A stretch of DNA of 64,000 nt from Nitrospirota bacterium (GTDB lineage Bacteria > Nitrospirota > Thermodesulfovibrionia > Thermodesulfovibrionales > Dissulfurispiraceae): assembly GCA_963710375.1 (NCBI GenBank), contig CAVPZX010000008.1:192001-256000 (forward strand), in the 5' to 3' direction. The notes beneath the pieces were generated by a model, which was given only the letters and a program-made list of their open reading frames with translations, was not told the DNA's origin and made no database searches. Of this stretch, positions 15,168 to 32,709 are shown piece by piece (the first letter of the stretch is position 1; each line of letters begins with the position of its first letter). Both the position numbers and the translations under genes were made by a program.

Positions 15168-15362
15168 TAACCCACATTATTAATAAATTTATACAAGGAG
15201 CAGGCGGGACATGGTGCTGAGCGGACTTTGACAGCCTAAGTGACACCAAGGATGGTGACACAGGCTGTCATAGCCTCGGAGCAAGGCTGGACGCCTCGCG
15301 AGAATGAGTGAAGCACTGTGGCCTGACTGCTCCTTGTATAAATTTATTAATAATGTGGGTTA
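15168..15362. mobile_element. MITE-like fold-back element (195 bp) with 36-bp perfect terminal inverted repeats
   Basis: taacccacattattaataaatttatacaaggagcag ... ctgctccttgtataaatttattaataatgtgggtta; internal hairpin gacagcct..aggctgtc; TA at both ends. Confidence 0.7.
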
Positions 15363-17990
15363 TAGCTCATAAATACCCTCTAAGAAATTCTTTGCGTAAC
15401 GCTCAACTTTAGCGTCGTCATGCAATACCGCATCGAGTTGCCTTGTATAAGCAATCAGCCTGCCTAAGTTATCGAGCATCTTCTCCATGTCGTCGCGTAT
15501 TATATTCGCAATCCGCCCGATAATAAGATCTCCCTTTGTTTTCGTATTGAACCCGTATTCTTTTAAAATAATCGCGATCAACTCTATCCTCCTCGATCGT
15601 TTTACCATTTCGGTAGCGCCGCCGGTAAAACGGAAGTAGATGTGGTTGTTCCTCGCAGTTTCACTGCAATAACAATCGATCATGTTAAAGTGATAGCCGA
15701 ACTTGAGGCTCAGATTGAGGTATTCATGCGAAATAACTGCAACGTTGTTGGCCGCATAACTGTCGTTGCCGGAAACGATATCAGGCATTCGCATCATGCT
15801 CGTGAGAAAATCATTCACCCTTAATGATACAGGTCCGGAATGCCATGCCCCGGGATGCATCATACCATGAAGAACAGCCCTGAGAGGAATGGAAACAACT
15901 TGTTCGAAACTAACGCTGTCGCTCCCCGCCCTGCGATTCATAGTGTTGTCCAGACCGCCTCCTATATCCACCACGATAATTCCCGCAGGTATCGGCAGGT
16001 CCAACTTCATGGCCGCTTGTCCCTTTAGTCCGTTCATTGCATTGTCGATAAGCTCCATGACAGATTTCTCATGTATAAACCTAAGGATATCGTGCATGGT
16101 CTTGCACCCTTCAGGACTAAATCTTTCCAGCAGGGGGTCCACGAGGTTGAGAGGAGAAATATATCTCAGCACATATCTCTTTTTGCGGTACTCGTAGATA
16201 TCCTCCATCGCAGCCTGGCCGGAACGCGCGTGTTCAAGCACCTCTCTGAGTATCCCGTCATATACAATCAACATATCCTCATCGTCTACAGTCACAGTAA
16301 TCTCCTGCCCTTGCTTGAGAATCTGCGTTGATGAGCCTGCGTTGACAAACGCAGGCACCTTGAATTCCCTGCATAGAGAAGCCATATGACTTGTAAGCGA
16401 CCCGGTATCGGTAATAATTGCAGAAGCATAGGGCATAACCCGTATGAAATCAGACGAGTCATTCCTGGCTACAAGGACATCCCCCCTGGAAAATTCCTGA
16501 AGCCCGTCTGCATTCTTGAAAATGAAAACCCTGCCGGCGCCCACACCCTTTTGCACAACATTACCCCTGGCTTTCATCAGGATATTTGTCCCGTCATGAG
16601 AAAATGAGAGTTTAGAGCTTTCCTTATCGCCGGCTGCAATCTTCAACGGTCTCGCCTGAAGTATGAATATTTTTCCGTCCCTGTCTATGGCCCATTCAAT
16701 ATCCTGAGGCTGACGGAAGTAATTTTCAATGAGCATCGCCTGTCTTGCAAGCCCCAGCGCCTGTTCTTCCTGCAGTGAACTCTGACCTGTACTTGCCGCA
16801 GAAGCCTGTACCTGAGTCACACCACAGTCTTCGCGGCATACTATCATAGAACGCTTTTCCCCGATCCTTTTAGTTATTATTACAGGCGACGTACCCTTTC
16901 TGATCAAATAAAAATCTGCATCTGTCTGACCTTCAACTACCGAAGTGCCCAGTCCCCATGTCGAATTTATGATCATAGTGTCTGAATCTCCGCCCGGATT
17001 TGTCGAATAGATGACGCCGCTGACGGCTGCATCGACCATAAGCAGACAGCCGACCGCCATTTTTATGCTTCCGATAGCTACCCCAAGTTGCTGATGATAA
17101 GCTGTTGACTTGTCCGAAAACAGACTGGCAACCACCCGCTTGTACGCCTCCTGTACCGCCCTGTTCTCCAACGGTACATTCAGGACAGTATCAAACTGTC
17201 CCGCGAAAGAAAATTCCCTGTCCTCTGCCTGGGCGCTGCTCCGAACAGCGAGAAAGCATTTATCTCCATATTTCTCCCTGAAGGTCGATATGGCTTTGTC
17301 GAGAGCATGTTCAATACCGGAAGGGATATTTCCGTTCATGATCGAAGTATATATTTTGTTCAACGCCTCTTTTGGATAAATATCATTTCCTTCCAGCGCT
17401 GAAATCATTTCATTGATTTTATTATGACGAATAAATTCATCGTATGCGAACACAGTAACAGCAAATGCGTCAGGAATGTCCAGAGCAACGTTATTTTTCA
17501 ATTCAGCAAGATTGGCGTTTTTTCCGCCTACCTCATGCGCCATGCTCCATGTAAGCGCGCTATAAGGCAGCACATATTCCCTTTGATAAAAATAGGAATA
17601 GCGGCCATCCAATGTACTATCATTTCTTTTTGTTTCGATTAAATGGGCGCTGTCCCCGTTTTTATAAACAAGCAGTCTGACTTCTCTATCGATGCGGCCA
17701 AATACATCTTTGAGGCGAGGATATTTATTCTTTGTGAGGACATCGAAGCTTGCCAGAGACTCTGTTAGCGTATCGTACAATCCGGCATAGGCGCTCCTGA
17801 TATAAGAAATATCAAATATATAGTCACCGCCAAGTTTGTCGCCCATATCAGCGATGATCTCAACGGCCTTGTTATGACTTTCAAGCACCTGCCTAAACCG
17901 GGTGAACATTTCCTTAAAGGTCACATGGCCCGCGGTGAATGTGTCCCTGATAATTTTCTTACCTAATGCTATGATCTTATTGAAAGGCAT
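15360..17990 (-). CDS. PEP synthase/pyruvate phosphate dikinase-family protein (ATP-grasp plus phospho-His domain, non-canonical C-terminus)
   Basis: VGGKNANL, AVRSSA, SFAGQFDT, QDIEWA, ILQARP, TGSLTSHMASLCRE; C-terminal about 280 aa not recognisable as the PpsA pyruvate-binding barrel. Confidence 0.85.
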   Translation of the reverse strand: MPFNKIIALGKKIIRDTFTAGHVTFKEMFTRFRQVLESHNKAVEIIADMGDKLGGDYIFDISYIRSAYAGLYDTLTESLASFDVLTKNKYPRLKDVFGRIDREVRLLVYKNGDSAHLIETKRNDSTLDGRYSYFYQREYVLPYSALTWSMAHEVGGKNANLAELKNNVALDIPDAFAVTVFAYDEFIRHNKINEMISALEGNDIYPKEALNKIYTSIMNGNIPSGIEHALDKAISTFREKYGDKCFLAVRSSAQAEDREFSFAGQFDTVLNVPLENRAVQEAYKRVVASLFSDKSTAYHQQLGVAIGSIKMAVGCLLMVDAAVSGVIYSTNPGGDSDTMIINSTWGLGTSVVEGQTDADFYLIRKGTSPVIITKRIGEKRSMIVCREDCGVTQVQASAASTGQSSLQEEQALGLARQAMLIENYFRQPQDIEWAIDRDGKIFILQARPLKIAAGDKESSKLSFSHDGTNILMKARGNVVQKGVGAGRVFIFKNADGLQEFSRGDVLVARNDSSDFIRVMPYASAIITDTGSLTSHMASLCREFKVPAFVNAGSSTQILKQGQEITVTVDDEDMLIVYDGILREVLEHARSGQAAMEDIYEYRKKRYVLRYISPLNLVDPLLERFSPEGCKTMHDILRFIHEKSVMELIDNAMNGLKGQAAMKLDLPIPAGIIVVDIGGGLDNTMNRRAGSDSVSFEQVVSIPLRAVLHGMMHPGAWHSGPVSLRVNDFLTSMMRMPDIVSGNDSYAANNVAVISHEYLNLSLKFGYHFNMIDCYCSETARNNHIYFRFTGGATEMVKRSRRIELIAIILKEYGFNTKTKGDLIIGRIANIIRDDMEKMLDNLGRLIAYTRQLDAVLHDDAKVERYAKNFLEGIYEL

Positions 17991-18075: not shown

Positions 18076-18438
18076 TTAACTTAGCGCGCGTTGTATGGAT
18101 GCTTTAAGCTCCTTTATTTTGACCGGCTTGGGGAAAAAGTCATGGACATCTCCCCTCAACGCCTCTATCGCGGTATCGAGGTTGGCAAATGCCGTAATCA
18201 TGATTACCTTAACACCGGGGTAAAGCTGTTTTACCGTTCTCAGGATCTCCATGCCGTCTACCCCCTTCATTTTAAGGTCCGTAACCACTACGTCAAACTT
18301 TTGCTCAACCAGGCGCGCAAGCGCGGCCTCGCCGTTTAAAAAAGTCTCGACTGCATAGCCTTCCTGTTCCAGAGACATCTTCGCCATGTCGCCCACAATT
18401 TTTTCATCATCAACAATCATGATCCTGTAGTTGTTCAT
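18076..18438 (-). CDS. Single-domain response regulator (receiver only)
   Basis: 120 aa; IVDDE..TDLKM..ITAF..KP. Confidence 0.92.
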   Translation of the reverse strand: MNNYRIMIVDDEKIVGDMAKMSLEQEGYAVETFLNGEAALARLVEQKFDVVVTDLKMKGVDGMEILRTVKQLYPGVKVIMITAFANLDTAIEALRGDVHDFFPKPVKIKELKASIQRALS

Positions 18439-18456: not shown

Positions 18457-18557
18457 GTTAAGGTTAAGGTTAAGGTTGAGGTTAAGGAAGATAAGAACAA
18501 AACGATGATTTTTTTTGTCTTTAACTTTTTCTTAACCTTAACCTCAACCTCAACCTG
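18457..18557. repeat. (GGTTAA)n...(TTAACC)n inverted hexamer element, copy 1
   Basis: gttaaggttaaggttaaggttgaggttaagg ... cttaaccttaacctcaacctcaacctg; overlaps the kinase stop codon. Confidence 0.85.
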
Positions 18558-19950
18558 TTTTTTTATAGACCGGCAATTCTACAGTAAAGGTGGTACCGAC
18601 ACCTACCATGCTTTCCACCCTGATATCTCCTTTGTGCTTCTTGATAATTCCGTAGCTGACCGACAGCCCGAGCCCTGTCCCCCCCTCTCCCTTGGTGCTG
18701 AAGAACGGGTCGAATATGTGAGGCAGGAATTCGCGAGGTATTCCCTTTCCTGTATCCATGACCTTGATCTCCACAGAATCCCCGCCGCTCCCAAGCCTGG
18801 TTCCCAAAAAGAGCGTCTTGCCGGCCTCCATTGATTGTACCGCATTGGTGATAAGATTCACCATGACCTGCAGTATCTGGTACTCATCGATTAAGACATC
18901 TGGGAGATCCGGGACGAAGTCCAACTTAGTTTTGATATTGGAGATGTCGAGCATGTTTTGCATAATCTTGAGAGTCTTATGCATTACCGCATTGATGTCG
19001 GTCTCTTTCAGGTGGGCCTCTTTTGGTTTTGAGAAGTCAATCAAGTTTTTTATAATTTCCTTTATCCTCTCTGTCTCCTTCTCGACCTTATCCATGAATT
19101 CAATTCTCTGGTCCTTGTCCAGCTTATCATACATTTCAGCATAGGTCTGCGCCATCATTGAAATGTTATTCAGGGGGTTTGTCAATTCATGTGCCACGCC
19201 GGCAGTGAGTATTCCAAGGGACGCAAGCTTTTTGGACTGGATAAGGTCCTCTTCACGGTTCCTCAGTTCCTCGGACATTGAATTGATAGCTGCCATGACC
19301 GAACCGAATTCATCATCCGGAATTGCGCCCTCGATTCTCTTGAAATTGCCCTTGGATATCGATTTTGCAAGCTTCTCTATCTCCCTCAACGATAGCAGAA
19401 TCTTCTGAGAAATAAAATGGCTCACAAAAACAGCGCATATGAGAATCACCCAGAATGAGTAGAAAAGTATGAGCTTCGAGCGTGATATAATGTCATTTTC
19501 CGCTTTCCTCTCAAGACGGGTGATGGTATCTGAAAATTCACGCAGCATTTTACCTTCCGCACTTAACTTTGAGTTAAGGACGGGATCACTGTGAGAATTA
19601 TGCTTCACTTCATTCACGATATCGGAGTAATGATTCAAATGTGATTTAAGCAATACAAAGTTGTTCTCTCCAACACCACGGATAATGTCCCTGCTTGCGC
19701 TATCCAGCGATTGCTGGGCCTTCTCTATCTTCTCCTGGATATCGGAAAGAAAGTCCTGCTTATGGAAAATGAAATAGTTTTTCTCTGTAAGCCGCATTTC
19801 GAGAAAAGTAGCGTTCAGGTCATCCGCTATCTCAACAAATCTCAGCTTTGTCTGCATTTGATTGAGATTCTGCATTGCAAAAAAACCTATCAGCAATATC
19901 AGCCCGATATTGACTACATTGGAAAGTATAATTTTACTTTCTATCTTCAT
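18550..19950 (-). CDS. Membrane sensor histidine kinase (2 TM, extracytoplasmic helical sensor, HAMP, HisKA, HATPase)
   Basis: GVAHELTNPLNNI, FDPFFSTK, GTGLGL; ATG at 19950 overlaps the upstream TGA (ATGA). Confidence 0.92.
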   Translation of the reverse strand: MKIESKIILSNVVNIGLILLIGFFAMQNLNQMQTKLRFVEIADDLNATFLEMRLTEKNYFIFHKQDFLSDIQEKIEKAQQSLDSASRDIIRGVGENNFVLLKSHLNHYSDIVNEVKHNSHSDPVLNSKLSAEGKMLREFSDTITRLERKAENDIISRSKLILFYSFWVILICAVFVSHFISQKILLSLREIEKLAKSISKGNFKRIEGAIPDDEFGSVMAAINSMSEELRNREEDLIQSKKLASLGILTAGVAHELTNPLNNISMMAQTYAEMYDKLDKDQRIEFMDKVEKETERIKEIIKNLIDFSKPKEAHLKETDINAVMHKTLKIMQNMLDISNIKTKLDFVPDLPDVLIDEYQILQVMVNLITNAVQSMEAGKTLFLGTRLGSGGDSVEIKVMDTGKGIPREFLPHIFDPFFSTKGEGGTGLGLSVSYGIIKKHKGDIRVESMVGVGTTFTVELPVYKKTG

Positions 19951-21149
19951 CCAGGTACAGGGCACCTGGGGACTTCGGCTTGTTCATTTCTTACCGGCAT
20001 ATACCATAACCATCCGTCTATTGTCATCAATACTCCGGCTATGATCAAAAAACCGTCGATGGCTGTCAGAATACTGAAACCGAAATAGTGTATCAACCCT
20101 AACCCGAACCCCACAAAGGAAACCCCTGTCCTGATAAAAGCGAGCCCTGTCCTCGCCCTTGCATATATGGTGCGGTAGCAAGCAGCAACTGTACGTTGTG
20201 CCGCCAGAACATTTCTTTCACGCGCCAGATGGGTACGCTCCCTGCTGGAAGGCGAAGGATACAAAATGGTGCAGTGGTCCGCAAGAAAATCACCGAGACG
20301 GGCAAGCATAGTCTGTTTGGCAGGCAGGTATGCACCGGCCTGATCAATAAAATGATAGTTCTCAAGAAATTGCACGGTTGCCGCAGTCACTTCTACAAGC
20401 GTCTGCTCTTCGGGAGGCGTCATTCTCGATCTCCTTATTTTCAAATAAGCGAAGAGACCGAAGAGTGCAAGCAAAAACCCGGCTGCCATGACCCCGAATA
20501 AGAAATAAACGCGCGTCAACCTGTAATGGCGAATAAGTATGTCCGACACTGCGATAAGCCGCAACCCCCATCTGAGAAAAGAAAAGCCGGTCCTGGCCAT
20601 TGCCAGGTCGGTCCTGTAACATGCGAGCCGCGTCCTCCATTGGGCCATTGTGTTACGCCAGAAAGCCAGCCCGGTCCTTTCGGTTCCGATGAGATAGCCC
20701 GGCTTTTCATGCAGAAAATCCTGGATGAACCATTGTATATCCTCGCCGAGCGCCACCCAGTATTCATACTTCTCCGCCTTTATAAACGTTTTTACTTCGT
20801 CATGAACAGCAGGATCTGTTGGGTCATTCGCCGCTATGACCACCGTATCACCGTCTATAATAACCGGAAACCACTGATATATCGACAGTCTCTCCCCATC
20901 CAAACCCGTCAGCAGTTCAGGCGGGATCGGCATCCGCTCATCATATTCCAAAAAGGGACAGTGGTAATGATTAGAAAGCGCCTGCAGCAGAATATGTTTA
21001 GGTATGCGATACTCCGAGATAAGGATGCTTTCCACATCGATACCCCTGGCGATAGCTGCGCGTTCAGCATCGCAAATTCTATCCTCGGTCAGTACACCCC
21101 AACCGATCAGATCACTGAATTTCTTGGAAGCAATGTTATCAACGCTCAT
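19947..21149 (-). CDS. Membrane protein: GspE_N/MshEN-like domain plus 2 DUF202-like repeats (paralog C)
   Basis: LIGWGVLTE..ALSNHYHCPFLEY..WFP..IAANDP; RTGLAFWRN..RTDLAMARTG and RTHLARERN..ARTGLAFIRTG, each followed by a TM hairpin. Confidence 0.75.
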   Translation of the reverse strand: MSVDNIASKKFSDLIGWGVLTEDRICDAERAAIARGIDVESILISEYRIPKHILLQALSNHYHCPFLEYDERMPIPPELLTGLDGERLSIYQWFPVIIDGDTVVIAANDPTDPAVHDEVKTFIKAEKYEYWVALGEDIQWFIQDFLHEKPGYLIGTERTGLAFWRNTMAQWRTRLACYRTDLAMARTGFSFLRWGLRLIAVSDILIRHYRLTRVYFLFGVMAAGFLLALFGLFAYLKIRRSRMTPPEEQTLVEVTAATVQFLENYHFIDQAGAYLPAKQTMLARLGDFLADHCTILYPSPSSRERTHLARERNVLAAQRTVAACYRTIYARARTGLAFIRTGVSFVGFGLGLIHYFGFSILTAIDGFLIIAGVLMTIDGWLWYMPVRNEQAEVPRCPVPG

Positions 21150-22845
21150 CACTACTGAACACCACCTTGCCCCATGAACGGGCCGGTACACCGTAATCAG
21201 GTATTATAAGCTCCATTTCTCCATAACAGTACGGGTACTGTTTCCTTATTTTTTCCGCAGGGAAATGCCAGTACATTCCATCGATAAAGAGTGCCAATCC
21301 AACCATTATTAGCGACATATTAAATACGGTCCAGGCTAAATTGCCCGTGCCGAAGTAGACAAGGAGTTCCATGCCTACCGCGGCTATGCCGATTCCGGTC
21401 CTGATAATAGCCAGGCCGGTCCTCGACCGCGCCATTACCGTCCGCAGTCTGGCCATAACGTTTCTTCTATCAGCCAGCATGGTCCTGTCGAGGGCAAGAC
21501 CTGTAGTGGCCCAGATACCGGGGGCGTAAGACGGCCTGACCTGTGGAACGCACTTGTAATCAGAATCGGGCTGCTTCATCGCCGGAGGAAAGACAAAATC
21601 CCATATACTCTGTTTAGCCTGGGTCTTCCTGACTAAATCAAAGCTTATCGAACCGGCACGTCGGCCCGGTAAATACCAATAAAATCCTTCTGCCGCCATT
21701 GCAATGCCTGCCATAATAAGGGCAGCGTCAAAAAAAGTCCATGGCCCGGGGCGGAACTGACGCAATAGTCCAATACCGAATCCGCCACACGCAACACCCG
21801 TTCTGGTAAATGCCAGCCCGGTGCGTGCCCTCGCCATTTTTGTCCGGAAGCCTGCCAGCATTGTCCTTTCTTCGGCAAAGTCAGTTCTGTCACTGGCAAG
21901 GAACCTGCGCCTCATTACCGGAGACAGATTGCTCCATCTGGAACGCAGAGCAGCAGCCTCCTCTATATGATCAGTACGTCTAAATACAGGATTGTCACCG
22001 GGATTCACCACTTCCAGCACCGTGGTCCCCCATGTCGGTTCAGTGCCGTTAAAATCAAATGCTTTTCCCCCTGATTTCCGGGCAGGCAGATACCATAGCA
22101 AGCCGTCAACAGTCATAATGATGCCTGAAATTAATAATGCCGCTTCGAACACAGTCAATAAACCTACACCCAGAATCCTGAAAAGCACTATTGCGATAGC
22201 AATAAAAGCTACGCCTGTGCGGAAAAAGGCGAGTCCGGTCCTGCCCTTTGACAGAGCTGTCCTGATACAAGCCATCAAAGAGCGCCTGTCAGCCAGAAAT
22301 GTTCTCACTTTGGCCAAAGGCGTCCTGCCTGCGGTGGAGGGGAAATGGGGGTTCACATCAAAGTTATGTTCGACAATCCTTACAATATCCGGAGGCAAGG
22401 CAATAATAAAGTTAACCTTTTCAACCCGCAGGGTATCTTTGATATCCTTAACCAGGTCGGAATCGGAAGGGTCATACATAATTACCTCGGCGCGCTTTCC
22501 CCCCACATAAATGGGAAACCAAAGTTGGCGTTTGAGTTTTTCCATGTCAAGACGCATGGTAATAAAATATGAAGACAAGCCGCTCTCATCGTATTCGACA
22601 AAAGGGAAATCGAGATGCATTGTGAACGCCCTTCGGGACGGTATGATAGTCTCATCATATTCGACAAAAGGACAGTGGTAGAATTCCGAAAGGCAGAACA
22701 ATATTTCGTGCTTAGGAATTCCCTTTTCAATCAAACATTCTTCAGGGTATGTGCCAGATGCAACTGATTCACGTATGCACTCATCCAACGCGCTTTCGGT
22801 GATAACGCCTCTTCTTATAAGCCGCTCAAATTTAACGTTCAGCAT
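21139..22845 (-). CDS. Membrane protein: GspE_N/MshEN-like domain plus 3 DUF202-like repeats (paralog B)
   Basis: Colinear close paralog of 22969-24603; three RTxLAxxRT..RTG plus TM-hairpin units. Confidence 0.78.
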   Translation of the reverse strand: MLNVKFERLIRRGVITESALDECIRESVASGTYPEECLIEKGIPKHEILFCLSEFYHCPFVEYDETIIPSRRAFTMHLDFPFVEYDESGLSSYFITMRLDMEKLKRQLWFPIYVGGKRAEVIMYDPSDSDLVKDIKDTLRVEKVNFIIALPPDIVRIVEHNFDVNPHFPSTAGRTPLAKVRTFLADRRSLMACIRTALSKGRTGLAFFRTGVAFIAIAIVLFRILGVGLLTVFEAALLISGIIMTVDGLLWYLPARKSGGKAFDFNGTEPTWGTTVLEVVNPGDNPVFRRTDHIEEAAALRSRWSNLSPVMRRRFLASDRTDFAEERTMLAGFRTKMARARTGLAFTRTGVACGGFGIGLLRQFRPGPWTFFDAALIMAGIAMAAEGFYWYLPGRRAGSISFDLVRKTQAKQSIWDFVFPPAMKQPDSDYKCVPQVRPSYAPGIWATTGLALDRTMLADRRNVMARLRTVMARSRTGLAIIRTGIGIAAVGMELLVYFGTGNLAWTVFNMSLIMVGLALFIDGMYWHFPAEKIRKQYPYCYGEMELIIPDYGVPARSWGKVVFSSDER

Positions 22846-22968
22846 AGCAATAGTTTTTCAGCTTCCAGACTCGCCGGCCATTTTCATGCCAATGGTTATT
22901 ATAAATGATATAGTTCTCATAATAAAACACTTTCTCTTTCGGATAATGCATCCGTCACATCATGCACC

Positions 22969-24603
22969 CTAGTCATTATCGAACACCAACTTTTTCCATG
23001 AACTTGCCGGTTTCCCGTAATCAGGTATCGGGATTTCCATGTCTCCATAACAGTACGGGTACTGCTTTCTAATTTTCTCGGCCGGAATATGCCAGTAGTA
23101 CCCGTCTGCCATAGATGCCAGCCCGGTCACTATCAGTATTACATTGAATATTGTCCAGGCAATATTGCCTGTGCCGAAGAAAACAAGGAGTTCCGTGCCG
23201 ACCGCAGATATGCCTATTCCTGTTCTGACGAGTGCCAGGCCGGTCCTTGACCGCGCCATGACCGTCCGCAGCCTCGTCATGACGTTCCTCCTGTCAGCGA
23301 GCATAGTCCTTTCGAGGGCAAGTCCCGTAGTAGCCCATATGCCCTTAGAATGAGACTGCCTGACAGGTGGAATACATTGATACTCCGAACCAGGGTGTTT
23401 CAGTGCCGGAGGGAAAAGAAAATCCCATATGTTCTTTCCTGACTCCACCTTGCAGATTGCTTCCAAACTTGCAGCACCTGCATGGCGGCCCGGGACATAC
23501 CAGTAAAACCCCTCGGCTGCCATTGCAAGGCCGACGATAATAAGCGCGGCATCAAAGAAAGTCCATGGCCCGGGGCGGAACTGGCGCAATAGTGCGATAC
23601 CAAATCCGATAAATATAACGCCGGTGCGCGTAAATGCCAGCCCGGTACGCGCCATGGCCATCCAGGTCCGGTAGTATACGTGTATCGTCCTTTCTTCGGC
23701 AAAATCCGTCCTGTCGCTCGCAAGGAACCTGCGCCTCATGACCGGGGACAGGTTGCTCCATCGGGAGCGGAGAGCCGCCGCCCCTTCCACATGGCCGGTA
23801 CGGGTAAAAAGAGGGCTGTCACCGGGATTCGCCACTTCAAGAACAGTAGTTCCCCACGTAGGTTCGGTAGAAGTGCAATCGAACACTGTTTTGCCTGCTT
23901 TCCGGGTGGGCAGATACCATAGCAGGCCGTCAACAGTCATAATGATGCCTGATATTAACAATGGGAGTTCAAACAAGGTCAGAAGCCCTATACCAAAAAT
24001 CCTGAAAAGCGTAACGGCAATGGACAGGAAGGCGATGCCGGTGCGGATGAAGGCCAGTCCTGTTCTGCCTTTTGCCTGGGAGGTCCTGGTGCAAGCCGTC
24101 AAAGAACGTCTGTCAGCCAGATATGTTCTCACTTTGGCCAAAGCCGTCCTGCCGGCTGAGGCCGGGAAATGGGGATTCACATCGAAGTTGTGCTCGATGA
24201 TCCTCACGAGGTCAGACGGCATGGCTGCAACGAAATCGATATCCTGAACCATAAGTGTATCTTTGACGTCTTGAATTACATAAGGGTCGAAAGGACGATA
24301 GGCTATTACCTCGGCGCGCCCTTTACTGACAGCAAGGGGAAACCAGAGATTCCGTTTGAGTTTCTCCATATTGAGACGCCTGGTGAGAAAAAAGGAGGCA
24401 ATGACGCTCTCATCGTATTCGACAAAAGGACAACCGTAGAATTCCGCAAAGGAAAGCAATATCTCGTGCTTCGGAACACCTTTTTCTATCAACCATTCTT
24501 CAGGATATTTGCCCGATGCAAGTGACTCTTTTAGCCCCTCACTCAATTCCCCTTCAGTGAGAATTCCTCTTTTTACCAGTCGCTCGAATTTTTTATCATA
24601 CAT
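22969..24603 (-). CDS. Membrane protein: GspE_N/MshEN-like domain plus 3 DUF202-like repeats (paralog A)
   Basis: RLVKRGILTEGEL..AEFYGCPFVEY..WFP; three Arg-ladder/TM-hairpin units ending (D/E)GxxW(Y/H)xP. Confidence 0.78.
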   Translation of the reverse strand: MYDKKFERLVKRGILTEGELSEGLKESLASGKYPEEWLIEKGVPKHEILLSFAEFYGCPFVEYDESVIASFFLTRRLNMEKLKRNLWFPLAVSKGRAEVIAYRPFDPYVIQDVKDTLMVQDIDFVAAMPSDLVRIIEHNFDVNPHFPASAGRTALAKVRTYLADRRSLTACTRTSQAKGRTGLAFIRTGIAFLSIAVTLFRIFGIGLLTLFELPLLISGIIMTVDGLLWYLPTRKAGKTVFDCTSTEPTWGTTVLEVANPGDSPLFTRTGHVEGAAALRSRWSNLSPVMRRRFLASDRTDFAEERTIHVYYRTWMAMARTGLAFTRTGVIFIGFGIALLRQFRPGPWTFFDAALIIVGLAMAAEGFYWYVPGRHAGAASLEAICKVESGKNIWDFLFPPALKHPGSEYQCIPPVRQSHSKGIWATTGLALERTMLADRRNVMTRLRTVMARSRTGLALVRTGIGISAVGTELLVFFGTGNIAWTIFNVILIVTGLASMADGYYWHIPAEKIRKQYPYCYGDMEIPIPDYGKPASSWKKLVFDND

Positions 24604-24615
24604 ATGGAAATTTAT

Positions 24616-24690
<75 letters not shown>

Positions 24691-24766
24691 AAATCAATGA
24701 GTTAGCGATATTATAACACACAAACATCATAAAAATATGCAATCATAACAAGAAACTCATAAGGAA

Positions 24767-24940
24767 AGGATCGGCAGGGGCAGGCTGTTTATCGGAGCAC
24801 TGAAACTACCTTTATTGCCAGCTACAATGCGGTATAGTCTCCATGGTCATACCAATTCTCAGGTGGGGCTCGGCGTTACTCGCCCCTGTTACAGCAGACC
24901 CGTGCATTGCTCCGATAAACAGCCTGCCCCTGCCGATCCT
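24767..24940. repeat. Fold-back element copy 1 (33-bp perfect inverted arms around a 108-bp core)
   Basis: aggatcggcaggggcaggctgtttatcggagca ... tgctccgataaacagcctgcccctgccgatcct. Confidence 0.8.
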
Positions 24941-24966
24941 ATAATCTGATTCTATAAAATAAAAAG

Positions 24967-25140
24967 CAGGATAAGGGGAACACTTGTTTTTCGACGCGAT
25001 GCACGGGTCTACTGTAACAGGGGCGAGTAACGCCGAGCCCCACCTGAAAATGGAGTCAAGTATAGCTGCTGTGAAAACATCGGTATTTGCTTACAAAGGT
25101 AGTTTCAGCGCGTCGAAAAACAGGTGCTCCCCTTATCCTG
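24967..25140. repeat. Fold-back element copy 2, inverted relative to copy 1 (32-bp arms, 110-bp core)
   Basis: caggataaggggaacacttgtttttcgacgcg ... cgcgtcgaaaaacaggtgctccccttatcctg; core shares a 48/49-nt block and a 14/14-nt block with copy 1. Confidence 0.8.
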
Positions 25141-25149
25141 ACTTCCTTA

Positions 25150-27300
25150 TTATTCTATTTGCTGTTCGATCAGCTCAGCAGTATGCATAACTTTGATCGC
25201 AGAGCCTTCTTTGTCAAAACCTCCCTTTATCTGCATAACGCAGCCGGGACAATCCATGGCAACAATGGAAGCGGATGTGTCCCTGATGTTTTTGAGCTTC
25301 CGTTGCAGTATGGGGGCGGAAATTTCAGGGAGCTTGAGTGAATAAGTGCCTCCCATGCCGCAGCACATGTCCGACTCAAACATTTCGACCAGGTCAAATC
25401 CTGATTTTTTCAGAAGTTCCCTCGGCTGATCATAGACATGCATTGTTCTCTTCAGATGGCAGGAATCGTGATAAGTGAGCAAAGGGGATGACTTTTCGGG
25501 GAGACTGTTCTTAAAGGTCAAGCGGCCTTCATCAGCCAGATTCTTGACTAAGGTGGAGAAATCCATTGCCAGCGCAGAAACCTCACGTGCCTGGGGCAAC
25601 CAATCGTTTTTGCCAAGACTCTCAAAAGTGTTGATGAATTCGTGTTTCAGTGCCACAGTGCAAGTCGGACAGGCTGAGACAATGTGCTGGACGTCTTCTT
25701 TAAGCAGGGCTTTGATGTTGTCGATTGCATTTTGGCCCGCAACCTCGTATGCTCCGCTATAGCGCGCGGGCGCTCCACAGCAAGTCTGCTCTTCAGGGAA
25801 TACGACCTCTATTCCTGCCTTATTCAATATCTTCACAACTGCACTGCCCATATCCGGATATGCAAAGTCTATGAGGCATCCGGCAAAAAAAGCGACCTTG
25901 ACCTTCTTTTTAGATATTTGGGACTGACCGATTTCTTTAAATTTGTCCCTGAAGGGCACAGGGGCTATGGACGGAAGGCTTCTGCTCTCGGTAAGGTTCG
26001 ACAGAAACATCGGGAGGTGGCGGATAAACCCCCCCTTCGCAAAAGGTTTTTGCGTTAACGAGGCGGTGCGGAGCATCGAATGGAAGAGCCTGCGGTTGTT
26101 CACCACAGAGAAGATAGCCTTCTGGGCGATCGATTGCCCCGCGTCCTTTACGATACGGCGCCTGATTTCGAGTATCAGTTCGGGGATGTCGATCTTTGCC
26201 GGGCAGACCTCCTTGCAATTGCCGCACTGGATGCAGAGGCTCTGAATGTCTTCAGATTGCTTCATTTCATCAAACCATGCAGTGAGTATTGTGCCGATGC
26301 CGCCCGTATAGACCTTGCCGAAGACATGACCGCCAACGAGTCTGAAGACAGGACAGACGTTGAGGCACGAGGCGCAGCGTATGCACTGAAGCGCCTGTCT
26401 GAACTTTGGGTCATTCGCCATCTCTGTCCTGCGGTTGTCCATCAGAATGATATGGAGGTCTTTCAACGACCCATCAGTGTTAGGAGTCCGGCCGGTGATA
26501 ATAGATACATAACTGGTCAGCAACTGGGACGTAGCACTCTTCGGAAGCGCTGTCAGAATGGGGACAATGTCTTTAAAGTCAGCAACAAGTTTTTCGATAC
26601 CGATAATTGCGACATGGATCTTTGGAAGTGTAGTGACAAGCCGTGCATTCCCTTCATTGGTGACAATTACTATGCTGCCGGTCTCGGCCACTGCAATGTT
26701 GGCTCCCGAGATACCCATGTCGGCAGTAAGAAACTTTGTGCGGAGCCTGGCCCGCGCTACCTTGACGAGTTGAGGGATGTCAGTGCTAAGGCGCTCATCG
26801 ACCTCTTTGCTAAAAAGCTCTGCGACCTCCTCTTTGGTCATGTGGATTGCCGGAAGTACCATGTGTGAGGGCCTCTGCCCAGCAAGCTGGATGATCCATT
26901 CCCCAAGGTCGGTCTCATTTACAGAGATACCATGGTCTTCGAGATAAGGGTTCAAATGGATCTCTTCCGACGCCATGGACTTGGATTTGACAACCTTCCT
27001 GACGCCGTTCTTCCTGGCGAGGTTGACTATATATTCCTTAATTTTTTCAGGATCTGTCGTCCTGAAGACCTTAGCTCCTTTCGCCTCGGCATTCCTGGTA
27101 AAAACCTCTGCCAGTAGATCGAGATGAGACGCAGCATACGATTTCAGTTCTGCGATCCTGGCCCTGAGGGCCTCAAAATCTATCCCTTCGTAAGCCTTGG
27201 CACGACTCGTCCTGTAGGCTTCCGAAAACCTGCCGAGCGCGCCCGTCAGGTTCGCATTCTGCAGGGCCGTATTTATGGATTCTCTGAATTCTTTTTTCAT
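25150..27300 (-). CDS. lutB: L-lactate dehydrogenase large subunit (LutB/LldH type: LUD, 2x4Fe-4S, two CCG domains)
   Basis: KSKSMASEE, ETDLGEWIIQL, PSHMVLPAIH, CIRCASCLNVCP, QTCCGAP, CCGMGG. Confidence 0.9.
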   Translation of the reverse strand: MKKEFRESINTALQNANLTGALGRFSEAYRTSRAKAYEGIDFEALRARIAELKSYAASHLDLLAEVFTRNAEAKGAKVFRTTDPEKIKEYIVNLARKNGVRKVVKSKSMASEEIHLNPYLEDHGISVNETDLGEWIIQLAGQRPSHMVLPAIHMTKEEVAELFSKEVDERLSTDIPQLVKVARARLRTKFLTADMGISGANIAVAETGSIVIVTNEGNARLVTTLPKIHVAIIGIEKLVADFKDIVPILTALPKSATSQLLTSYVSIITGRTPNTDGSLKDLHIILMDNRRTEMANDPKFRQALQCIRCASCLNVCPVFRLVGGHVFGKVYTGGIGTILTAWFDEMKQSEDIQSLCIQCGNCKEVCPAKIDIPELILEIRRRIVKDAGQSIAQKAIFSVVNNRRLFHSMLRTASLTQKPFAKGGFIRHLPMFLSNLTESRSLPSIAPVPFRDKFKEIGQSQISKKKVKVAFFAGCLIDFAYPDMGSAVVKILNKAGIEVVFPEEQTCCGAPARYSGAYEVAGQNAIDNIKALLKEDVQHIVSACPTCTVALKHEFINTFESLGKNDWLPQAREVSALAMDFSTLVKNLADEGRLTFKNSLPEKSSPLLTYHDSCHLKRTMHVYDQPRELLKKSGFDLVEMFESDMCCGMGGTYSLKLPEISAPILQRKLKNIRDTSASIVAMDCPGCVMQIKGGFDKEGSAIKVMHTAELIEQQIE

Positions 27301-27852
27301 TGATTCATCGCTCCAGGCCCATCGACAAATATTATGATAAGTCTTTCCGGGCCATGGACGCCGATGGTAAGCACACGTTCGATGTCAGCCTGTCCGGCTC
27401 GGTCCGGTAATTAACGCCATATAGCCGCTCTCTTTGGGATCAATCTTAGTCAGCAGAGATGGCAGGTCTGCCAGAAGCCTGTCAGTGGCTGCCAGGGCTA
27501 CGTGGATAAGCGGCAGCGAAGATGCCAGCCTCTGATCAACCGCCGTAGAATCCTGCATCAGTGATCCCGTATTTGCTATGGCCCAATCCATCTGGGTAAT
27601 CCCTATTCTGGATTCCGCAGCAGCCTTGCGGCTGAAGTCGAACTTAAGTCCCGGCACTTTCTCAGATAGCTGCTTCCTGTCAAGCCCGTCGAGAAAGCGG
27701 CAATCGGCCCAAACAGCATATGACCCGGGATTGTCGGCAATGCCCTCTTTTTGGAGAAGCTCGATAATAAAATCAAGTGCCTCTGCGTCTGAACGAAAAC
27801 GATGGACTTCCGCATTTACCGCTTCAGCACGCATTTTGAATATATCAAACAC
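27297..27852 (-). CDS. lutC: Lactate utilisation protein LutC/LldG; +1 frameshift near 27389
   Basis: AIANTGSL..ITGPSRT; removing one G gives the canonical ADIERVLTIGVHGP, with the stop overlapping the lutB ATG. Confidence 0.88.
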
Positions 27853-27905
27853 AGCCCTGGTCCTTCAGCACGATCTTCTTTCCCATTAGTACTTCCTGCT
27901 TCAGC

Positions 27906-29684
27906 TATACCCCTGCTGGATTGCCCATGACTCTGGACATCACTGTAACCAGCAATGCGAGACCCGCAGTCAAACCAAGATATGTCAATCCGTCAGATGG
28001 AAATGCCGGCTTTGCGGCAGCAGCCGCAGTCTGCGGCGACCACAGGAGGAGCCGCGGCCGCCACTTTTACGGCTACAGGCACAATCCATTTGATGACATA
28101 TGCCTGCAGACAAGCCATAAGGCCGATAACGCTGGTTAGGATAATGGAATGTTTTAGGGTAAAGCGGAAGATATCAGATTCGTGCCCCACAAGTCCTACA
28201 GCCGCAGTTGCAACAGAAAGGGACTGAGGAGAAATCATTTTTCCGCAAACGCCTCCGGAAGAGTTTGCTGCCACCGTGACAATCGGGTCGACGCCTATCT
28301 GGGTAGCGGTCACGTACTGCAGCTTCCCAAAGAGTGCATTGGAAGAAGTATCGGAACCGGTCATAAATACGCCGAGCCAGCCTAAGAATGCGGCAAAGAA
28401 CGGGAAGAGTACGCCCGTCATCGCAAAGGCGTTTCCGAGGGTAATCACCATACCCGAGAAATTAAAGATGTAAGCAAATCCGAGGATCGAAGAGATTGTT
28501 AATACAGGCAAGCGAAGCTTCTTCAGCGTGTCTCCGGCAACACTTAACGCCGTCGAGATCGACGCGCCCATTACAGGTATCGAGAATAGTCCGACAAACA
28601 GGATAGCGGTCCCCGTTGCGCTAAGAATGTTGAATATGTATACTGCGGGCATCGGCTTCCCACCCCTGATGACCATATTGTGAAGTCCGGGTATCTGGAA
28701 TTTGGCGAGGCCGTAAAAATCGAGGGCTGCCTTGATGGGCTTGATGCCCCAGGCAGCCACAAAAATAGAAAGGATAAGAAAAGGCGCCCACGCCCTGAAG
28801 ACCTGCCCGCCTGTACATCCGAGTTTCCCTCTGCCGCAGGCTGCCGCTTCATGGTCGAAAGTCCAGCTCTCTTTAGGGTGCCAGAATCTGAGGAAGAATG
28901 TCAGGCAAAGGATCGAGGTGATGGACGCAAGGATATCCGGGAGCAAAGGTCCCAGAAAGTTGGAAGATAAATACTGTACAATCGCGAATGACCCTCCGCT
29001 CACAAAGCAGGCCGGCCAAACTTCCACGCCTTTCTTCCAGCCGGACATAAGCACCACAAGGTAGAGAGGGATAATAACACTGAGGAAAGGCAGGGTCCGG
29101 CCAACCATCTGGCTGAGAGCCATCTGATCAACTCCGGCAACCTGTGCGCCGACTATGATAGGTATTCCGATAGCGCCGAACGCAACCGGGGCGGTATTGG
29201 CTATAAGACATATACCGGCAGCATAAAGCGGATTGAAGCCGAGACCCATCAGCATTGCAGCGGTTATGGCTACCGGCGCACCGAAACCGGCAGCGCCTTC
29301 AAGGAACGCGCCGAAAGAAAAGGCTATAAGAAGGGCTTGCATACGCCGGTCATCCGATATGGCGGCAAGCGATTGCTTGATGATCTCGAACTGCCCCGTC
29401 TTTACAGAAAGGTTATAAATGAAAAGGGCTGTGACAATGATCCATGCGACCGGCCACAAACCGAACAAACAACCATTGAGCGTCGCAAGCACCGCATACT
29501 GTACAGGCATTCCATAGCCGATAATGGCAATGAGCAGGGCTATCCCAACAGCGCTCATTGCCGCCCAATGTCCTGCCATCCTTTTGAACGCCAGCGCCCA
29601 GAAAAGATATATTACGGGAACTGCCGCCATCAGGGCGGAAAGACCGAGATTCCCTAAAGGATCAATCACTGTTTGCCAAGGCAT
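27906..29684 (-). CDS. lctP: Lactate permease (LctP/LldP family); probable frameshift near 28040 hiding a last TM helix
   Basis: FLEGAAGFGAPVAI, NTAPVAFGAIG, TGSDTSSNALFG, GKMISPQS; alternate frame continues ..DGLTYLGLTAGLALLVTVMSRVMGNPAGV*. Confidence 0.92.
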
Positions 29685-29778
29685 ATTCTTCCTCCTCGTT
29701 TAATACTGGAATTTTAACGATGATTTAGTTTATGGCATTGGGTCAAAGAAGAGAATCGACGTTAGTCTGATTTTATTC

Positions 29779-29795
29779 ATAGGGTTTTGTCCTAT
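29779..29795. promoter_or_regulatory. Candidate response-regulator site upstream of lctP
   Basis: ATAGGGTTTTGTCCTAT (ATAGG-N7-CCTAT); related site at 32744-32760. Confidence 0.45.
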
Positions 29796-29906
29796 AAAAA
29801 AGGCAGGTTAAGGTTAAGGTTAAGGTTAAGAAAAAGAAAAAAGACAAGGATAAAGTCTTAACTTTATTTTCTCAATCTCAACCTTAACCTTAACCTGCCT
29901 TTTTTT
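29796..29906. repeat. (GGTTAA)n inverted hexamer element, copy 2 (terminator-like)
   Basis: aaaaaaggcaggttaaggttaaggttaagg ... ccttaaccttaacctgcctttttt. Confidence 0.85.
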
Positions 29907-32709
29907 ACCTGCTTTTTTCAGTACACTTGTCCACAAGGTAAACGATCGACTGATAGTCTATGCTGCTGTGACGGGTCAGCCCGATCTCGCAGGTGCGGCT
30001 ATTAGAATATCCCGCAGAGCAATCAGCCGGGATCGATCCTCTCAGTTCAGCAAGGGCAGACGCGTTAAGCTCGGGATGAGAAAAGCCCCTGTCTCCTGCG
30101 AAGCCGCAGCATCCGACAGCGGGAGGAGTAATGACCTTCTCTGCGCATGCCTCGGCAACAGCCCTGAATTTCCCCGCAAGTCCCATCTTCACCGAACTGC
30201 AGGTAACATGAACCGCTACAGTGTCCGGCGCTTTCCTGAACGTCAGCCGGTCCATGAGAAATGTGTGGATGAATTCCACCGGCTCGTAAAGCTTCAGCCC
30301 CGAACTAAAGGCATTCCTCATGCGGTACAAACATGGACTGGTGTCGCATAGCACTGGATATTCGTCCCCGCCGCAGGCCAGAAGCGCTTTTTCGAGTTCA
30401 GCAGACATCCGGTCTGCCTGCTCGAAAAAGCCTTTGCTTTCGAATGGCAGACCGCAGCATAACTTTTCGATCCCTTCAGGGAACAACACGTCGTACCCTG
30501 CCTTTCTCAGGATGGATAGCATAGCCTCGAATACCTTTCTTTGGTCTTTATCATATTTGGAAGGACCCATGGTCCTCACTATGCAGCTCGGGAAATAGAC
30601 AACGGCACGGTCCGAGCCGTTCCTGATATCCCGGAACCGAGGAGCGGAAATCCCCTTCGGCATGTGACGGTTCCAGCGGGAGCTGCTGATTCTCTCCATG
30701 AGTGAAGAACCGAGTACCGAGTGCAAGACCCCTGCAGCCTTTAAACCATATCTGATGCCGGTCAACGCCAGGGGATAGTGGTCAGCGACCCACCGGGCCG
30801 CACGGATGCCGGGCAGACCATGTTTAAGAGAGCGAAGATATTTAGTCAGCCGCCCGGTATCGATTGCTATGGGGCAGGCCGTTGCGCATAAGCCGTCAGT
30901 AGCGCATGTCTGCTCCCCCAGGTAATTGTAGCTGTTTTCGAGAACTCGAAGCAGTCCGCCATTGTTGCCGGCTGCCCTGAGCCGGGAAATCTCCCTTTGC
31001 ACCGCGATGCGCTGTCTCGGCGTCGTGGTAATGTCCTTCGAAGGACACTTGACCTCGCAGTATCCGCATTCTATGCACCTGTCCACGATCTCATGGGTTT
31101 TCGGAAGAGGTTTCAGGTTTTCTATGTGAACAGCCGGATTATCATTTATCATCACACCAGGATTCAGGATGTTGTCTGGATCGAAGGCTTTTTTTGTCCT
31201 TTTCATCAAATCATATGCCTTCCTGCCCCACTCCAGTTCGACAAAAGGCGCCATGTTCCTTCCGGTCCCATGCTCGCCCTTTAAAGAACCGTTATATTTT
31301 TTCACTACTACATTACAAACATCATCCATGAAACTTCGGTACCTTTTCACTTCTTCGGGTAAGTTAAAATCCTGTGTAAACACAAAATGCAGATTTCCAT
31401 CGAGGGCGTGGCCGAAGATGATCCCCTCGCTATAGCCGTGTTTTTTCATCAGCGCCTGTAACTCAACTGTAGCACTCGCAAGCTTTTCGATAGGGAAGGC
31501 AACATCCTCGATTATGACCGTAGTGCCGATTTTCCTGGCAGCGCCCACTGCCGGGAAAAGTCCTCTCCTGACGTCCCAGAGCGTTTCATATTCCTCCTTC
31601 AAATCGGTGAATGAAACCGGCAGGACTGTATGGATGGCCCGCAGGGAATCCATGATCTCGTCTATCTGTCTTCTCAGGGTATCCTGGTCACCTGCCCGTG
31701 TCTCTATGAGCAGGGCAGCGGCCTCCTGGTCGAGCGACTTCAGATATGAAGGCATTCCTTCCCTTTCTTCCACGGAACGTAGAGACTCCCTGTCCATCAA
31801 TTCCACCGCGGAGGAAGGTCCCCCTTTCAGCATGATCGTTGCCTTGCAGGCATTCTCTATGTCAGGGAAGATGATGAGCGAGCTGGCTTTATGCGTATGT
31901 TCGACGACTGTCGCATAAGTAATCTCGGAAATAAAGCCGAGCGTGCCTTCCGAACCGATCATTAAGTGCAGGATTATGTCTATTGGATCGGTGAAGTCCA
32001 CAAAAGAATTAAGGCTATAGCCGGTAGTATTCTTGATGCGGTACTTATCGATTATCCTTTGCCTGAGATCCTTGTCACCGTTTATTTCGTCTCTGATGCG
32101 TCCGATCTCATCCAGAATCTCTTTACGGGACTCCTGGAACCGCAGCCGCGATCCGGGGTCGCGGGTGTCCAGCACATAGCCGTCGCCGAATATAATCTTC
32201 ATTCCCTCGACGGTCTTATAACTGTTCTGGGCGGTGCCGCAGCACATGCCGCTGGCGTTGTTGGCAGCGATACCGCCGATCATGCAGCTGTTGATCGAAG
32301 CTGGATCCGGTCCTATCTTCCTCTTGTGAGGAATGAGATAAGCGTTAGCCTGAGCGCCGATCACTCCTGGTTCTAAGGTAATCCGCTCCCCGTTGTCGTG
32401 GATCGCAAACCTCTTCCAGCCGCCCGATATAACCAGCAGAACTGAGTCGGTTACCGCCTGTCCCGAAAGGCTGGTGCCCGCTGCCCTGAATGTGACCGGA
32501 ACCTTGAAAGAACGTGCGGCGTTCAGAATACGCGACATTTCCTCCGGCGCTTTTACCAGGATGACGATTTTCGGGACCAGCCTGTAGAAACTGGCATCCG
32601 TACCATACGCCAGTGACCGGAAGGCATCGCTGAAAAGCCTCGACCCTGGGATAAATCCGGCAACCTCCTGATAAAATGATCTGTAGTTCCCTGCAAGAAT
32701 GTCCGCCAT
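29905..32709 (-). CDS. dld: FAD- and Fe-S-containing D-lactate dehydrogenase (Dld-II type)
   Basis: YGTDASFY, FRAAGTSLSGQ, GSEGTL, GHALDGNLHF, GEHGTGRN, CIECGYCE, C-terminal CCG domains; next to lctP and lut genes. Confidence 0.88.
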   Translation of the reverse strand: MADILAGNYRSFYQEVAGFIPGSRLFSDAFRSLAYGTDASFYRLVPKIVILVKAPEEMSRILNAARSFKVPVTFRAAGTSLSGQAVTDSVLLVISGGWKRFAIHDNGERITLEPGVIGAQANAYLIPHKRKIGPDPASINSCMIGGIAANNASGMCCGTAQNSYKTVEGMKIIFGDGYVLDTRDPGSRLRFQESRKEILDEIGRIRDEINGDKDLRQRIIDKYRIKNTTGYSLNSFVDFTDPIDIILHLMIGSEGTLGFISEITYATVVEHTHKASSLIIFPDIENACKATIMLKGGPSSAVELMDRESLRSVEEREGMPSYLKSLDQEAAALLIETRAGDQDTLRRQIDEIMDSLRAIHTVLPVSFTDLKEEYETLWDVRRGLFPAVGAARKIGTTVIIEDVAFPIEKLASATVELQALMKKHGYSEGIIFGHALDGNLHFVFTQDFNLPEEVKRYRSFMDDVCNVVVKKYNGSLKGEHGTGRNMAPFVELEWGRKAYDLMKRTKKAFDPDNILNPGVMINDNPAVHIENLKPLPKTHEIVDRCIECGYCEVKCPSKDITTTPRQRIAVQREISRLRAAGNNGGLLRVLENSYNYLGEQTCATDGLCATACPIAIDTGRLTKYLRSLKHGLPGIRAARWVADHYPLALTGIRYGLKAAGVLHSVLGSSLMERISSSRWNRHMPKGISAPRFRDIRNGSDRAVVYFPSCIVRTMGPSKYDKDQRKVFEAMLSILRKAGYDVLFPEGIEKLCCGLPFESKGFFEQADRMSAELEKALLACGGDEYPVLCDTSPCLYRMRNAFSSGLKLYEPVEFIHTFLMDRLTFRKAPDTVAVHVTCSSVKMGLAGKFRAVAEACAEKVITPPAVGCCGFAGDRGFSHPELNASALAELRGSIPADCSAGYSNSRTCEIGLTRHSSIDYQSIVYLVDKCTEKSR

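Follow-up and report, generated by a model that had tools for sequence, protein, structure and literature searches.

Three-unit and two-unit arginine-ladder proteins of the DUF202 kind in Nitrospirota: a predicted five-helix membrane ring that may handle small oxyanions

The stretch of DNA analysed here, called the window, comprises 64,000 nucleotides from a Nitrospirota bacterium of the family Dissulfurispiraceae (GenBank assembly GCA_963710375.1, contig CAVPZX010000008.1, positions 192,001 to 256,000). Its minus strand carries three adjacent genes, named A, B and C, whose products join an N-terminal domain like that of MshEN/GspE-N proteins to two or three units in which arginine recurs at every seventh residue ahead of a membrane hairpin of the DUF202 type. 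The genes and their parts, in coordinates of the window, are:

22969..24603, minus strand: gene A, 544 aa, first copy; MshEN-like domain and three arginine-ladder/DUF202 hairpins of types A1-A3 (PF05157; PF02656 three times)
24181..24603, minus strand: MshEN/GspE-N fold domain of A (5htl, Z 14.2, root-mean-square deviation 3.2, 138 aligned); degenerate cyclic di-GMP (c-di-GMP) motif
23908..24150, minus strand: unit A1, six-arginine ladder (R152-R187) and hairpin with the end DGLLWYLP
23491..23733, minus strand: unit A2, six-arginine ladder (R291-R326) and hairpin with the end EGFYWYVP; leucine of one heptad changed to histidine
23083..23331, minus strand: unit A3, five-arginine ladder (R432-R460, threonine at the first step) and hairpin with the end DGYYWHIP
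21139..22845, minus strand: gene B, 568 aa, second copy of the duplicated three-unit subunit, with the same three unit types as A
22357..22845, minus strand: MshEN/GspE-N-like domain of B, from profile matches
22084..22326, minus strand: unit 1 of B (type A1), six-arginine ladder and hairpin
21667..21909, minus strand: unit 2 of B (type A2), six-arginine ladder and hairpin
21259..21507, minus strand: unit 3 of B (type A3), five-arginine ladder and hairpin
19947..21152, minus strand: gene C, ~400 aa (start GTG at 21152 or ATG at 21149); MshEN-like domain and units C1 and C2
20709..21152, minus strand: MshEN/GspE-N fold domain of C (5htl, Z 14.4, root-mean-square deviation 3.4, 138 aligned); degenerate c-di-GMP motif
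20445..20678, minus strand: unit C1, six-arginine ladder (R159-R194) and atypical hairpin with a conserved Asp in the first helix and no W-x-P end motif
19995..20237, minus strand: unit C2, six-arginine ladder (R306-R341) and hairpin with the end DGWLWYMP

Proteins A and B are 68% identical, and C is ~32% identical to either. The three proteins score 46.3, 40.1 and 24.1 bits with PF02656 (gathering score 23.4) and all exceed the cut-off of PF05157. The start of C overlaps the stop of B, and the stop of C overlaps the start of a HAMP histidine kinase gene. A sequence-only reading of this DNA had drawn the limits of the system at 19947..24160, which holds the units, but the system starts at 24603, with gene A and its MshEN-like domain. 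No further paralog of A, B or C was found by tblastn in the whole genome; the homologs carry mainly Nitrospirota labels, and some are labelled Deltaproteobacteria.

All eight ladder units lie within 19995-24150 in three open frames. Aligned on their RTG anchor, six units have arginine at six successive heptad steps and two have it at five, the latter being the third units of A and B, where threonine replaces the first arginine. This register confirms the arginine at every seventh residue over five to six heptads that had been read from the sequence, and the two ladders quoted at that time agree letter for letter; the (D/E)GxxW(Y/H)xP end was again found in seven of the eight hairpins, the exception being the first unit of C. 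When the three proteins (arginine content 7.5-8.8%) were shuffled 10,000 times with their composition preserved, 9,960 shuffles contained no ladder of at least five steps, 40 contained one and none contained two, compared with the eight observed, and at periods of 3-6 and 8-11 the arginine runs did not exceed three. Across the whole genome (six-frame open stretches of at least 150 aa, n=3,727), eight of the 14 ladders with at least five steps, and six of the seven with at least six, are units of A, B or C.

The two kinds of gene are found as a pair. Among 78 GTDB loci (from the best 80 of 233 confirmed stretches), 72 consist of one three-unit gene and a directly overlapping two-unit gene downstream; three have the A-A-C order seen here, one has C in two pieces and two end at a contig edge. 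All 76 complete loci thus have the three-unit gene directly followed by the two-unit gene. In the reciprocal search, which started from C in metagenomes (best 80 of 220 loci), a three-unit gene was directly upstream in 73 of the 80, and the other seven had no upstream DNA. A tree of 74 units over 84 columns, built by a quick method that leaves many forks open, sets each of the types A1, A2, A3, C1 and C2 apart by a branch of its own (Shimodaira-Hasegawa-like approximate likelihood ratio test, 93-100) and pairs the units of A and B in the window by type. Judged from gene content and this tree, the unit of function is likely to be five (3+2) rather than eight, the eight seen here being five types plus three duplicates. 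A ring of five such units is, as a prediction, probable. Among 2,637 candidate proteins of 703-2005 aa no natural five-unit fusion was found, which is weak evidence. In two loci (L046, 9595-10888, and L154) the two-unit gene is split into two frames, a candidate assembly error or pseudogene. A record labelled Betaproteobacteria (L064) also carries the pair and for every unit type clusters tightly with locus L077 of Nitrospirota, for which transfer or a binning error are candidate explanations.

Conservation was read from 119 rows of A-type proteins (120 listed, one partial match dropped) and 119 rows of C-type proteins (the window protein and 118 of 120 listed); these rows are best matches, 59-88% identical to the query, and hence kin. 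Each of the 29 ladder positions is arginine in 97-100% of the rows. Non-arginine residues occupy 5 of 2023 ladder cells in the A set and 2 of 1428 in the C set, leaving arginine in 3444 of 3451. Other arginines of the query proteins are kept on average at 75% (A) and 68% (C); 9 of the 24 in A and 8 of the 20 in C reach 97% as well. The heptad consensus is R-(T/N)-x-(L/M)-A-x-x with a conserved L-A-x-x-R-T face, and mean column entropy by heptad position is 0.02 for R, 0.09 for T, 0.28 for A, 0.32 for L and 0.44-0.67 on the opposite face. The four conserved positions make up one continuous helix face, and the two most variable lie opposite. Since the i±3/4 neighbours of the ladder arginines are leucine and alanine, the arginines cannot be neutralised along their own helix. 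AlphaFold2 monomer models of A (predicted local distance difference test 83.5, predicted template modelling score 0.78) and C (79.0 and 0.58) show ladder and first membrane helix as a single helix of 50-56 residues, which a short loop joins to a second helix. The arginine stripe on one helix face proposed by the sequence-only reading is borne out by the face analysis and by these long helices; its periodicity is conserved in homologs, and salt bridges within the helix, which would have undone it, are ruled out.

The hydrophobic stretches start at the fifth ladder step, and therefore about four steps should lie in the cytoplasm, a topology to which the N-terminal domain also points, as do the basic residues that follow each hairpin. 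Six rings would span ~52 Å at 10.4 Å per heptad, and in three of the five unit types a further arginine sits on the same stripe at the outer end. Helical barrels pack through a wide interface with heptad rules of its own; with the g-a-b-c-d-e-f register assigned by these rules, leucine at g, alanine at a, arginine at d and threonine at e would form such an interface, with arginine and alanine alternating on the axis. A mutual-information scan of paired A and C columns, underpowered at 115 pairs (effective number 57), had its top pairs in variable loops and termini; the pair A157-C308, at the same ladder level, was within noise and was not used.

In a tree of 33 whole three-unit proteins, first copies (100/99) are separate from second copies (91/98), both within a group of 11 rows, one of which comes from a single-copy locus; across four genomes the first and second copies form separate groups. 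A and B differ in 158 changed codons (232 identical, 155 synonymous). By these trees and codon counts, A and B are one old duplication with both frames intact. A 22-residue internal duplication in the N-terminal domain of B (residues 69-90, window 22576-22641, minus strand, with a second PFVEYDE) marks the second copy in every A-A-C locus examined. All five non-arginine cells of the A set belong to the duplicated group: three first copies have R312W and two second copies R180K, probably through two events. First copies, A among them, have histidine instead of leucine in one unit-2 heptad. Since these ladder and leucine changes are confined to the duplicated group, they suggest that A and B are alternative subunits with changed lining.

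The relation to known proteins runs through YidH. In hhalign, the profile of the units matches stand-alone YidH from their own phylum (probability 95.4, E 1.7e-8, 64 columns) and brings into register the R-x6-R-x6-R with which the first membrane helix begins; a YidH profile in turn has the Vtc1 and Vtc4 chains as its top PDB matches. The yeast VTC complex is a heteropentamer in which five first transmembrane helices line a pore with rings of K24 and R31 and a hydrophobic ring at M42 (PMC9911596; 10.1101/2023.01.27.525886). In the register given by YidH, K24 and R31 of Vtc1 fall on the fourth and fifth ladder steps (last but two and last but one), both arginine in 97-100% of rows; relative to VTC, the ladder has three more steps on the cytoplasmic side and one more in the membrane. 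At the position of the M42 ring, S, A, G, T or C is found in 95-100% of rows in all five units. Since the axis-facing positions in the membrane are small, a hydrophobic gate of the VTC type would be absent.

A, B and C are a variant of the DUF202/VTC kind and not a VTC member. Like VTC (three Vtc1, Vtc3 or Vtc2, and Vtc4; PDB 7ytj, 8i6v, 9umg), they have a DUF202-type helix whose basic residues are spaced by seven, subunits of unequal kind and paralogs that would serve as alternative subunits; gene content predicts five units per complex, the number in VTC. The five units are here on two chains, each with two membrane helices instead of three and five or six basic steps instead of two; small residues replace the hydrophobic gate, the lock glutamate is absent, and MshEN-fold domains stand in place of the SPX and TTM polymerase domains of VTC. 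YidH/DUF202 proteins (PF02656) likewise have three arginines seven apart, which read RVHMANE-RTFLAWI-RTS in the stand-alone copy of the window's genome, whereas the present proteins are tandem fusions of two or three units with three more ladder steps, no third helix, an N-terminal MshEN-fold domain and an obligate 3+2 gene pair. Their units read A(K/R)(G/A/S)RTGLAF, and the ANERT(F)LxW motif of YidH/Vtc1 is not found in them. The stand-alone three-helix YidH with R-x6-R-x6-R lies on contig C3 of the window's genome (L106:1459-1848), and many genomes of the phylum have such a YidH, whether or not they carry the pair.

MshEN domains bind c-di-GMP through two copies of RLGxx(L/V/I)(L/V/I)xxG(L/V/I)(L/V/I)xxxxLxxxLxxQ (PMC5013675). 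Both the RLG and the glutamine are replaced in both half-motifs of both chains (119 rows each), and the c-di-GMP profile NF053729 gives 14.2 and 12.8 bits for A and B (cut-off 38) and no match for C. Canonical c-di-GMP binding by these domains is unlikely, and gating by c-di-GMP was rejected as the default reading, the motif being lost. The fold is common to MshEN/GspE-N proteins (PF05157; MshE 5htl, PilF GSPII, XpsE-N 2d28); the loss of RLG and glutamine resembles the non-binding XpsE-N, and the domains are here fused to membrane hairpins and not to an ATPase. They may act as docking modules.

The reading we favour, with a probability of about 0.42, is that A or B together with C forms an arginine-lined pseudo-pentameric ring of the inner membrane that conducts small oxyanions, and not a polymer, and is regulated by the signalling proteins encoded with it. 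The three-hairpin and the two-hairpin protein would pair into five helices around an axis lined by stacked arginine rings. The ladder helices would be the inner barrel, with arginine and alanine alternating along the axis and leucine and threonine packing helix to helix, and the second helix of each hairpin would belong to an outer ring. About four rings would lie in the cytoplasm, reaching ~30 Å further than YidH does. The other two would sit at and within the membrane, where the small axis-facing residues would leave no VTC-like gate; the five guanidiniums of each ring would have to be balanced by bound anions. The cargo would most likely be small inorganic oxyanions (sulfur oxyanions or phosphate). 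The MshEN-fold domains would dock or gate, probably for the co-encoded kinase, receiver or phosphoenolpyruvate (PEP)-synthase-like phosphotransferase, and with A and B interchangeable there would be two rings (A-C and B-C), like Vtc2 and Vtc3 in yeast. Of the cationic bundle in the sequence-only reading, this keeps the conserved one-face arginine stripe, whose homologous VTC residues form cationic rings in a five-helix pore, but not the polyanion cargo, and the conserved bundle is counted as five units (3+2).

Gene content also speaks for this reading, TauE lying within 39 of the 78 GTDB loci. In a survey of 201 Nitrospirota genomes the pair was found in 32 (31 with a full C match, one split over contigs); dsrA is present in 31 of these 32, as is Alph_Pro_TM. 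Several observations weigh against the favoured reading. The dsrA association is confounded by descent, and the sole exception is the window's own genome (98.8% complete), which has no dsrA match; it also lacks a TauE gene beside the operon. The link to VTC is indirect and has a weak last step (E 0.02-1.1 for Vtc1 and Vtc4), and the unit profile alone matches no VTC protein and nothing useful in PDB sequences. The glutamate that locks VTC subunits together is G, A or S in 93-100% of rows, and the models have two membrane helices per unit and lack the third of YidH and VTC. The first helix of C1, with its conserved Asp, falls below the hydropathy threshold. Single-hairpin relatives vary from 4 to 29 ladder steps in recent-looking tandem expansions, which fit a spacer as well as a filter. 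Finally, no analysis pinpointed a substrate. Foldseek and VIA-align searches with whole-chain models gave no VTC chain among the matches listed, only the MshEN fold being clear; helical matches of Z 7-10.5, designed toroids and barrels among them, were within the chance range, and in the ESM Atlas only uncharacterised DUF202 clusters matched. With regard to dsrA and ppk1, 12 of 13 other genomes of the same family have dsrA and none of the 13 has ppk1, which is present in the window's genome.

The relatives and neighbours of the pair bear on a different role. Next to C in the window lie:

18550..19965, minus strand: HAMP histidine kinase, overlapping the end of C; conserved neighbour in 60 of 78 loci
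18076..18438, minus strand: single-domain response regulator, by resemblance to a receiver cluster found in 46 of 78 loci
15360..17990, minus strand: PEP-synthase-like protein with an ATP-binding domain and a His-swivel domain; neighbour in 52 of 78 loci

The PEP-synthase-like protein keeps its His motif but matches PEP synthases over residues 139-591 only, and its C-terminal part has no Pfam or PDB match. Alph_Pro_TM (40), TauE (39) and tandem USP genes (36) follow in frequency among the neighbours, in counts for which many of the 78 loci end early. No substrate is known for the TSUP (TauE) operons of Desulfovibrio (PMC4641369). In the window's genome the usual cassette is scattered: TauE and tandem USP are on contig C3, and an Alph_Pro_TM gene on contig C2 (L109:8514-15965) stands without TauE, ~5 kb from ppk1 and a ppx-like gene.

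A second survey, a unit profile search of 401 genomes from the phylum of a Syntrophobacteraceae record (G201), found the pair in five genomes and single-hairpin proteins in 14. Fourteen single-hairpin genes, from 13 genomes, encode ladders of 12-29 perfect RTxLAxx repeats (L195-L207; L220-L233), the longest (29 steps) measuring ~290 Å as a helix; eight other matches are short two-helix DUF202 proteins with four or five arginines. That no genome had both the 3+2 and the long form is uninformative at these frequencies. Around the 14 long-ladder genes, six of whose loci are close kin, there are receiver genes at 11, kinase genes at 10, and PEP-synthase-like and TauE genes at seven each. In the unit tree a branch with support 94 groups the long forms with the five types and separates them from short DUF202 and YidH. 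Since the long and 3+2 forms share cassette and tree side, the ladder is, by these comparisons, a length-variable module of one gene cassette, and the 3+2 pair has the look of a homo-oligomer that became fixed in an asymmetric form.

Such variation suits a non-conducting, anion-stabilised stalk made of the same five-helix bundle, a rod that anchors or switches a cytoplasmic signalling complex as anion sensor or scaffold; its arginine layers would bind axial oxyanions or snorkel out to acids on the neighbouring helix. Tight linkage to kinase, receiver and phosphotransferase genes fits this role, as do the overlap of C with the kinase start, the receiver domain fused to the end of one long-ladder protein (L196), and the cytidylate-kinase-like/BON gene that directly precedes eight of the 14 long-ladder genes (several of them close kin). 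In the long ladders, glutamate or aspartate stands at +2 in 41% and at +5 in 37% of 212 heptads. The N@d layers of trimeric autotransporter adhesins are an example of coiled coils with a polar core. In trimers and tetramers, polar coiled-coil cores coordinate axial ions; in dimers they snorkel out (PMC13580157). The likeness to these coiled coils and to Orai's basic region lies in core positions that repeat a polar or basic residue so that ions can sit on the axis, and is an analogy only, with no homology detected; here arginine stands at every heptad and is continuous with a membrane helix. An anchor would hardly need a stripe that runs through the membrane beside small axis residues and ends in extra outer arginines in three of five types, nor a fixed count of five specialised units, which a pseudo-symmetric pore requires, and homologous VTC helices do line a pore. 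We regard the stalk as rather unlikely.

For a ring that threads a polyanion as VTC does, be it polyphosphate or another such as polythionate, the geometry is favourable. The polyphosphate chain has one phosphate every ~2.7 Å, which would bring about four negative charges to each five-arginine ring. Vacuolar polyphosphate depends on the two basic rings of VTC (PMC9911596), and the window's genome encodes ppk1. That gene is on another contig, however, and its genome is one of only two hosts of 32 that have it (7 of 14 controls); PPK2 (7 of 14 controls) and the VTC catalytic domain PF09359 (3 of 14 controls) are in none of the 32, TTM and SPX domains are absent from A, B and C, ppk1 is in one of 19 Desulfobacterota hosts of the pair or long form, and no polymerase is among the neighbour clusters of the 78 loci. 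On these counts polyphosphate export was rejected as the default. The polyanion cargo proposed from the sequence was accordingly not borne out, the polyphosphate-making enzymes being missing from most hosts and linked in none of the 78 loci, and the varying ladder length of the relatives weakens it further; we hold such threading to be improbable.

The stoichiometry could also differ, with all eight units of A, B and C in one larger ring or with each chain forming homo-oligomers independently. Three genes in a row, here and in three of 78 loci, would allow the former, and single-hairpin relatives must homo-oligomerise; 72 of the 78 loci, though, consist of 3+2 alone, A and B share the three unit types and the duplication is confined to one group, which makes either arrangement very unlikely. 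Least of all do we expect an Orai-like cation channel whose basic region holds an anion plug, with arginine rings that gate rather than select: Orai, with 18 basic residues in three anion-binding rings, conducts Ca2+ (PMC6170153) and thereby shows that arginine rings alone do not identify the permeant, but no search made gave Orai homology, and the outer mouth has no acidic ring, its stripe positions being arginine, histidine or small.

Going beyond the favoured ring, the pair might be a signal-controlled prokaryotic relative of the VTC ring at the short end of a family of arginine-cored tubes with 6 to 29 rings, passing an anion between the membrane and a cytoplasmic enzyme. The PEP-synthase-like phosphotransferase would then make or charge the cargo in place of the VTC polymerase, and the A/B duplication would give two linings. 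This extension is speculative and, as a whole, improbable.

DUF202/YidH is a widespread bacterial family whose function is not established, and its only solved relatives form a eukaryotic polyphosphate channel. YidH of E. coli passed a screen for D-alanine export and failed the transport assay (PMC10299036). The two-chain, five-unit version makes the DUF202 question testable with two genes. Arginine at the core position of every heptad, in 6 to 29 layers, would be unusual for a coiled coil, and the pair would point to an unstudied anion-handling or anion-sensing module that is common in sulfur-cycling Nitrospirota and occurs also in Desulfobacterota. Among the papers listed by a literature search that left most subscription journals outside, we found none on this DUF202 3+2 family; the supplement of PMC5013675 lists MshEN architectures and may include these proteins, and PMC4400040 and PMC6393860 mention DUF202 only in tables. 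Three points are new here: the long and 3+2 forms share a cassette and a position in the tree, the VTC gate and lock residues are lost, and the ladder changes are confined to the duplicated group.

Upstream of the operon, a tRNA-Gly(CCC) gene (24616-24690), which like gene A is on the minus strand, ends 12 bases ahead of the A start codon, and A, B and C may be co-transcribed with this tRNA or have been inserted beside it. The intergenic region 24760-25160 contains nested inverted repeats with arms of 36, 48 and 67 nt, parts of which recur at 76-100% identity at no fewer than 11 other places on seven contigs of the genome; from this pattern it looks like a small non-autonomous mobile element or one similar to repetitive extragenic palindromic sequences. 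Further upstream, 25150-32709 (minus strand) holds lactate utilisation genes (FAD-linked oxidase, lactate permease and LUD-domain proteins), which are not conserved neighbours of the 3+2 pair in the GTDB loci.

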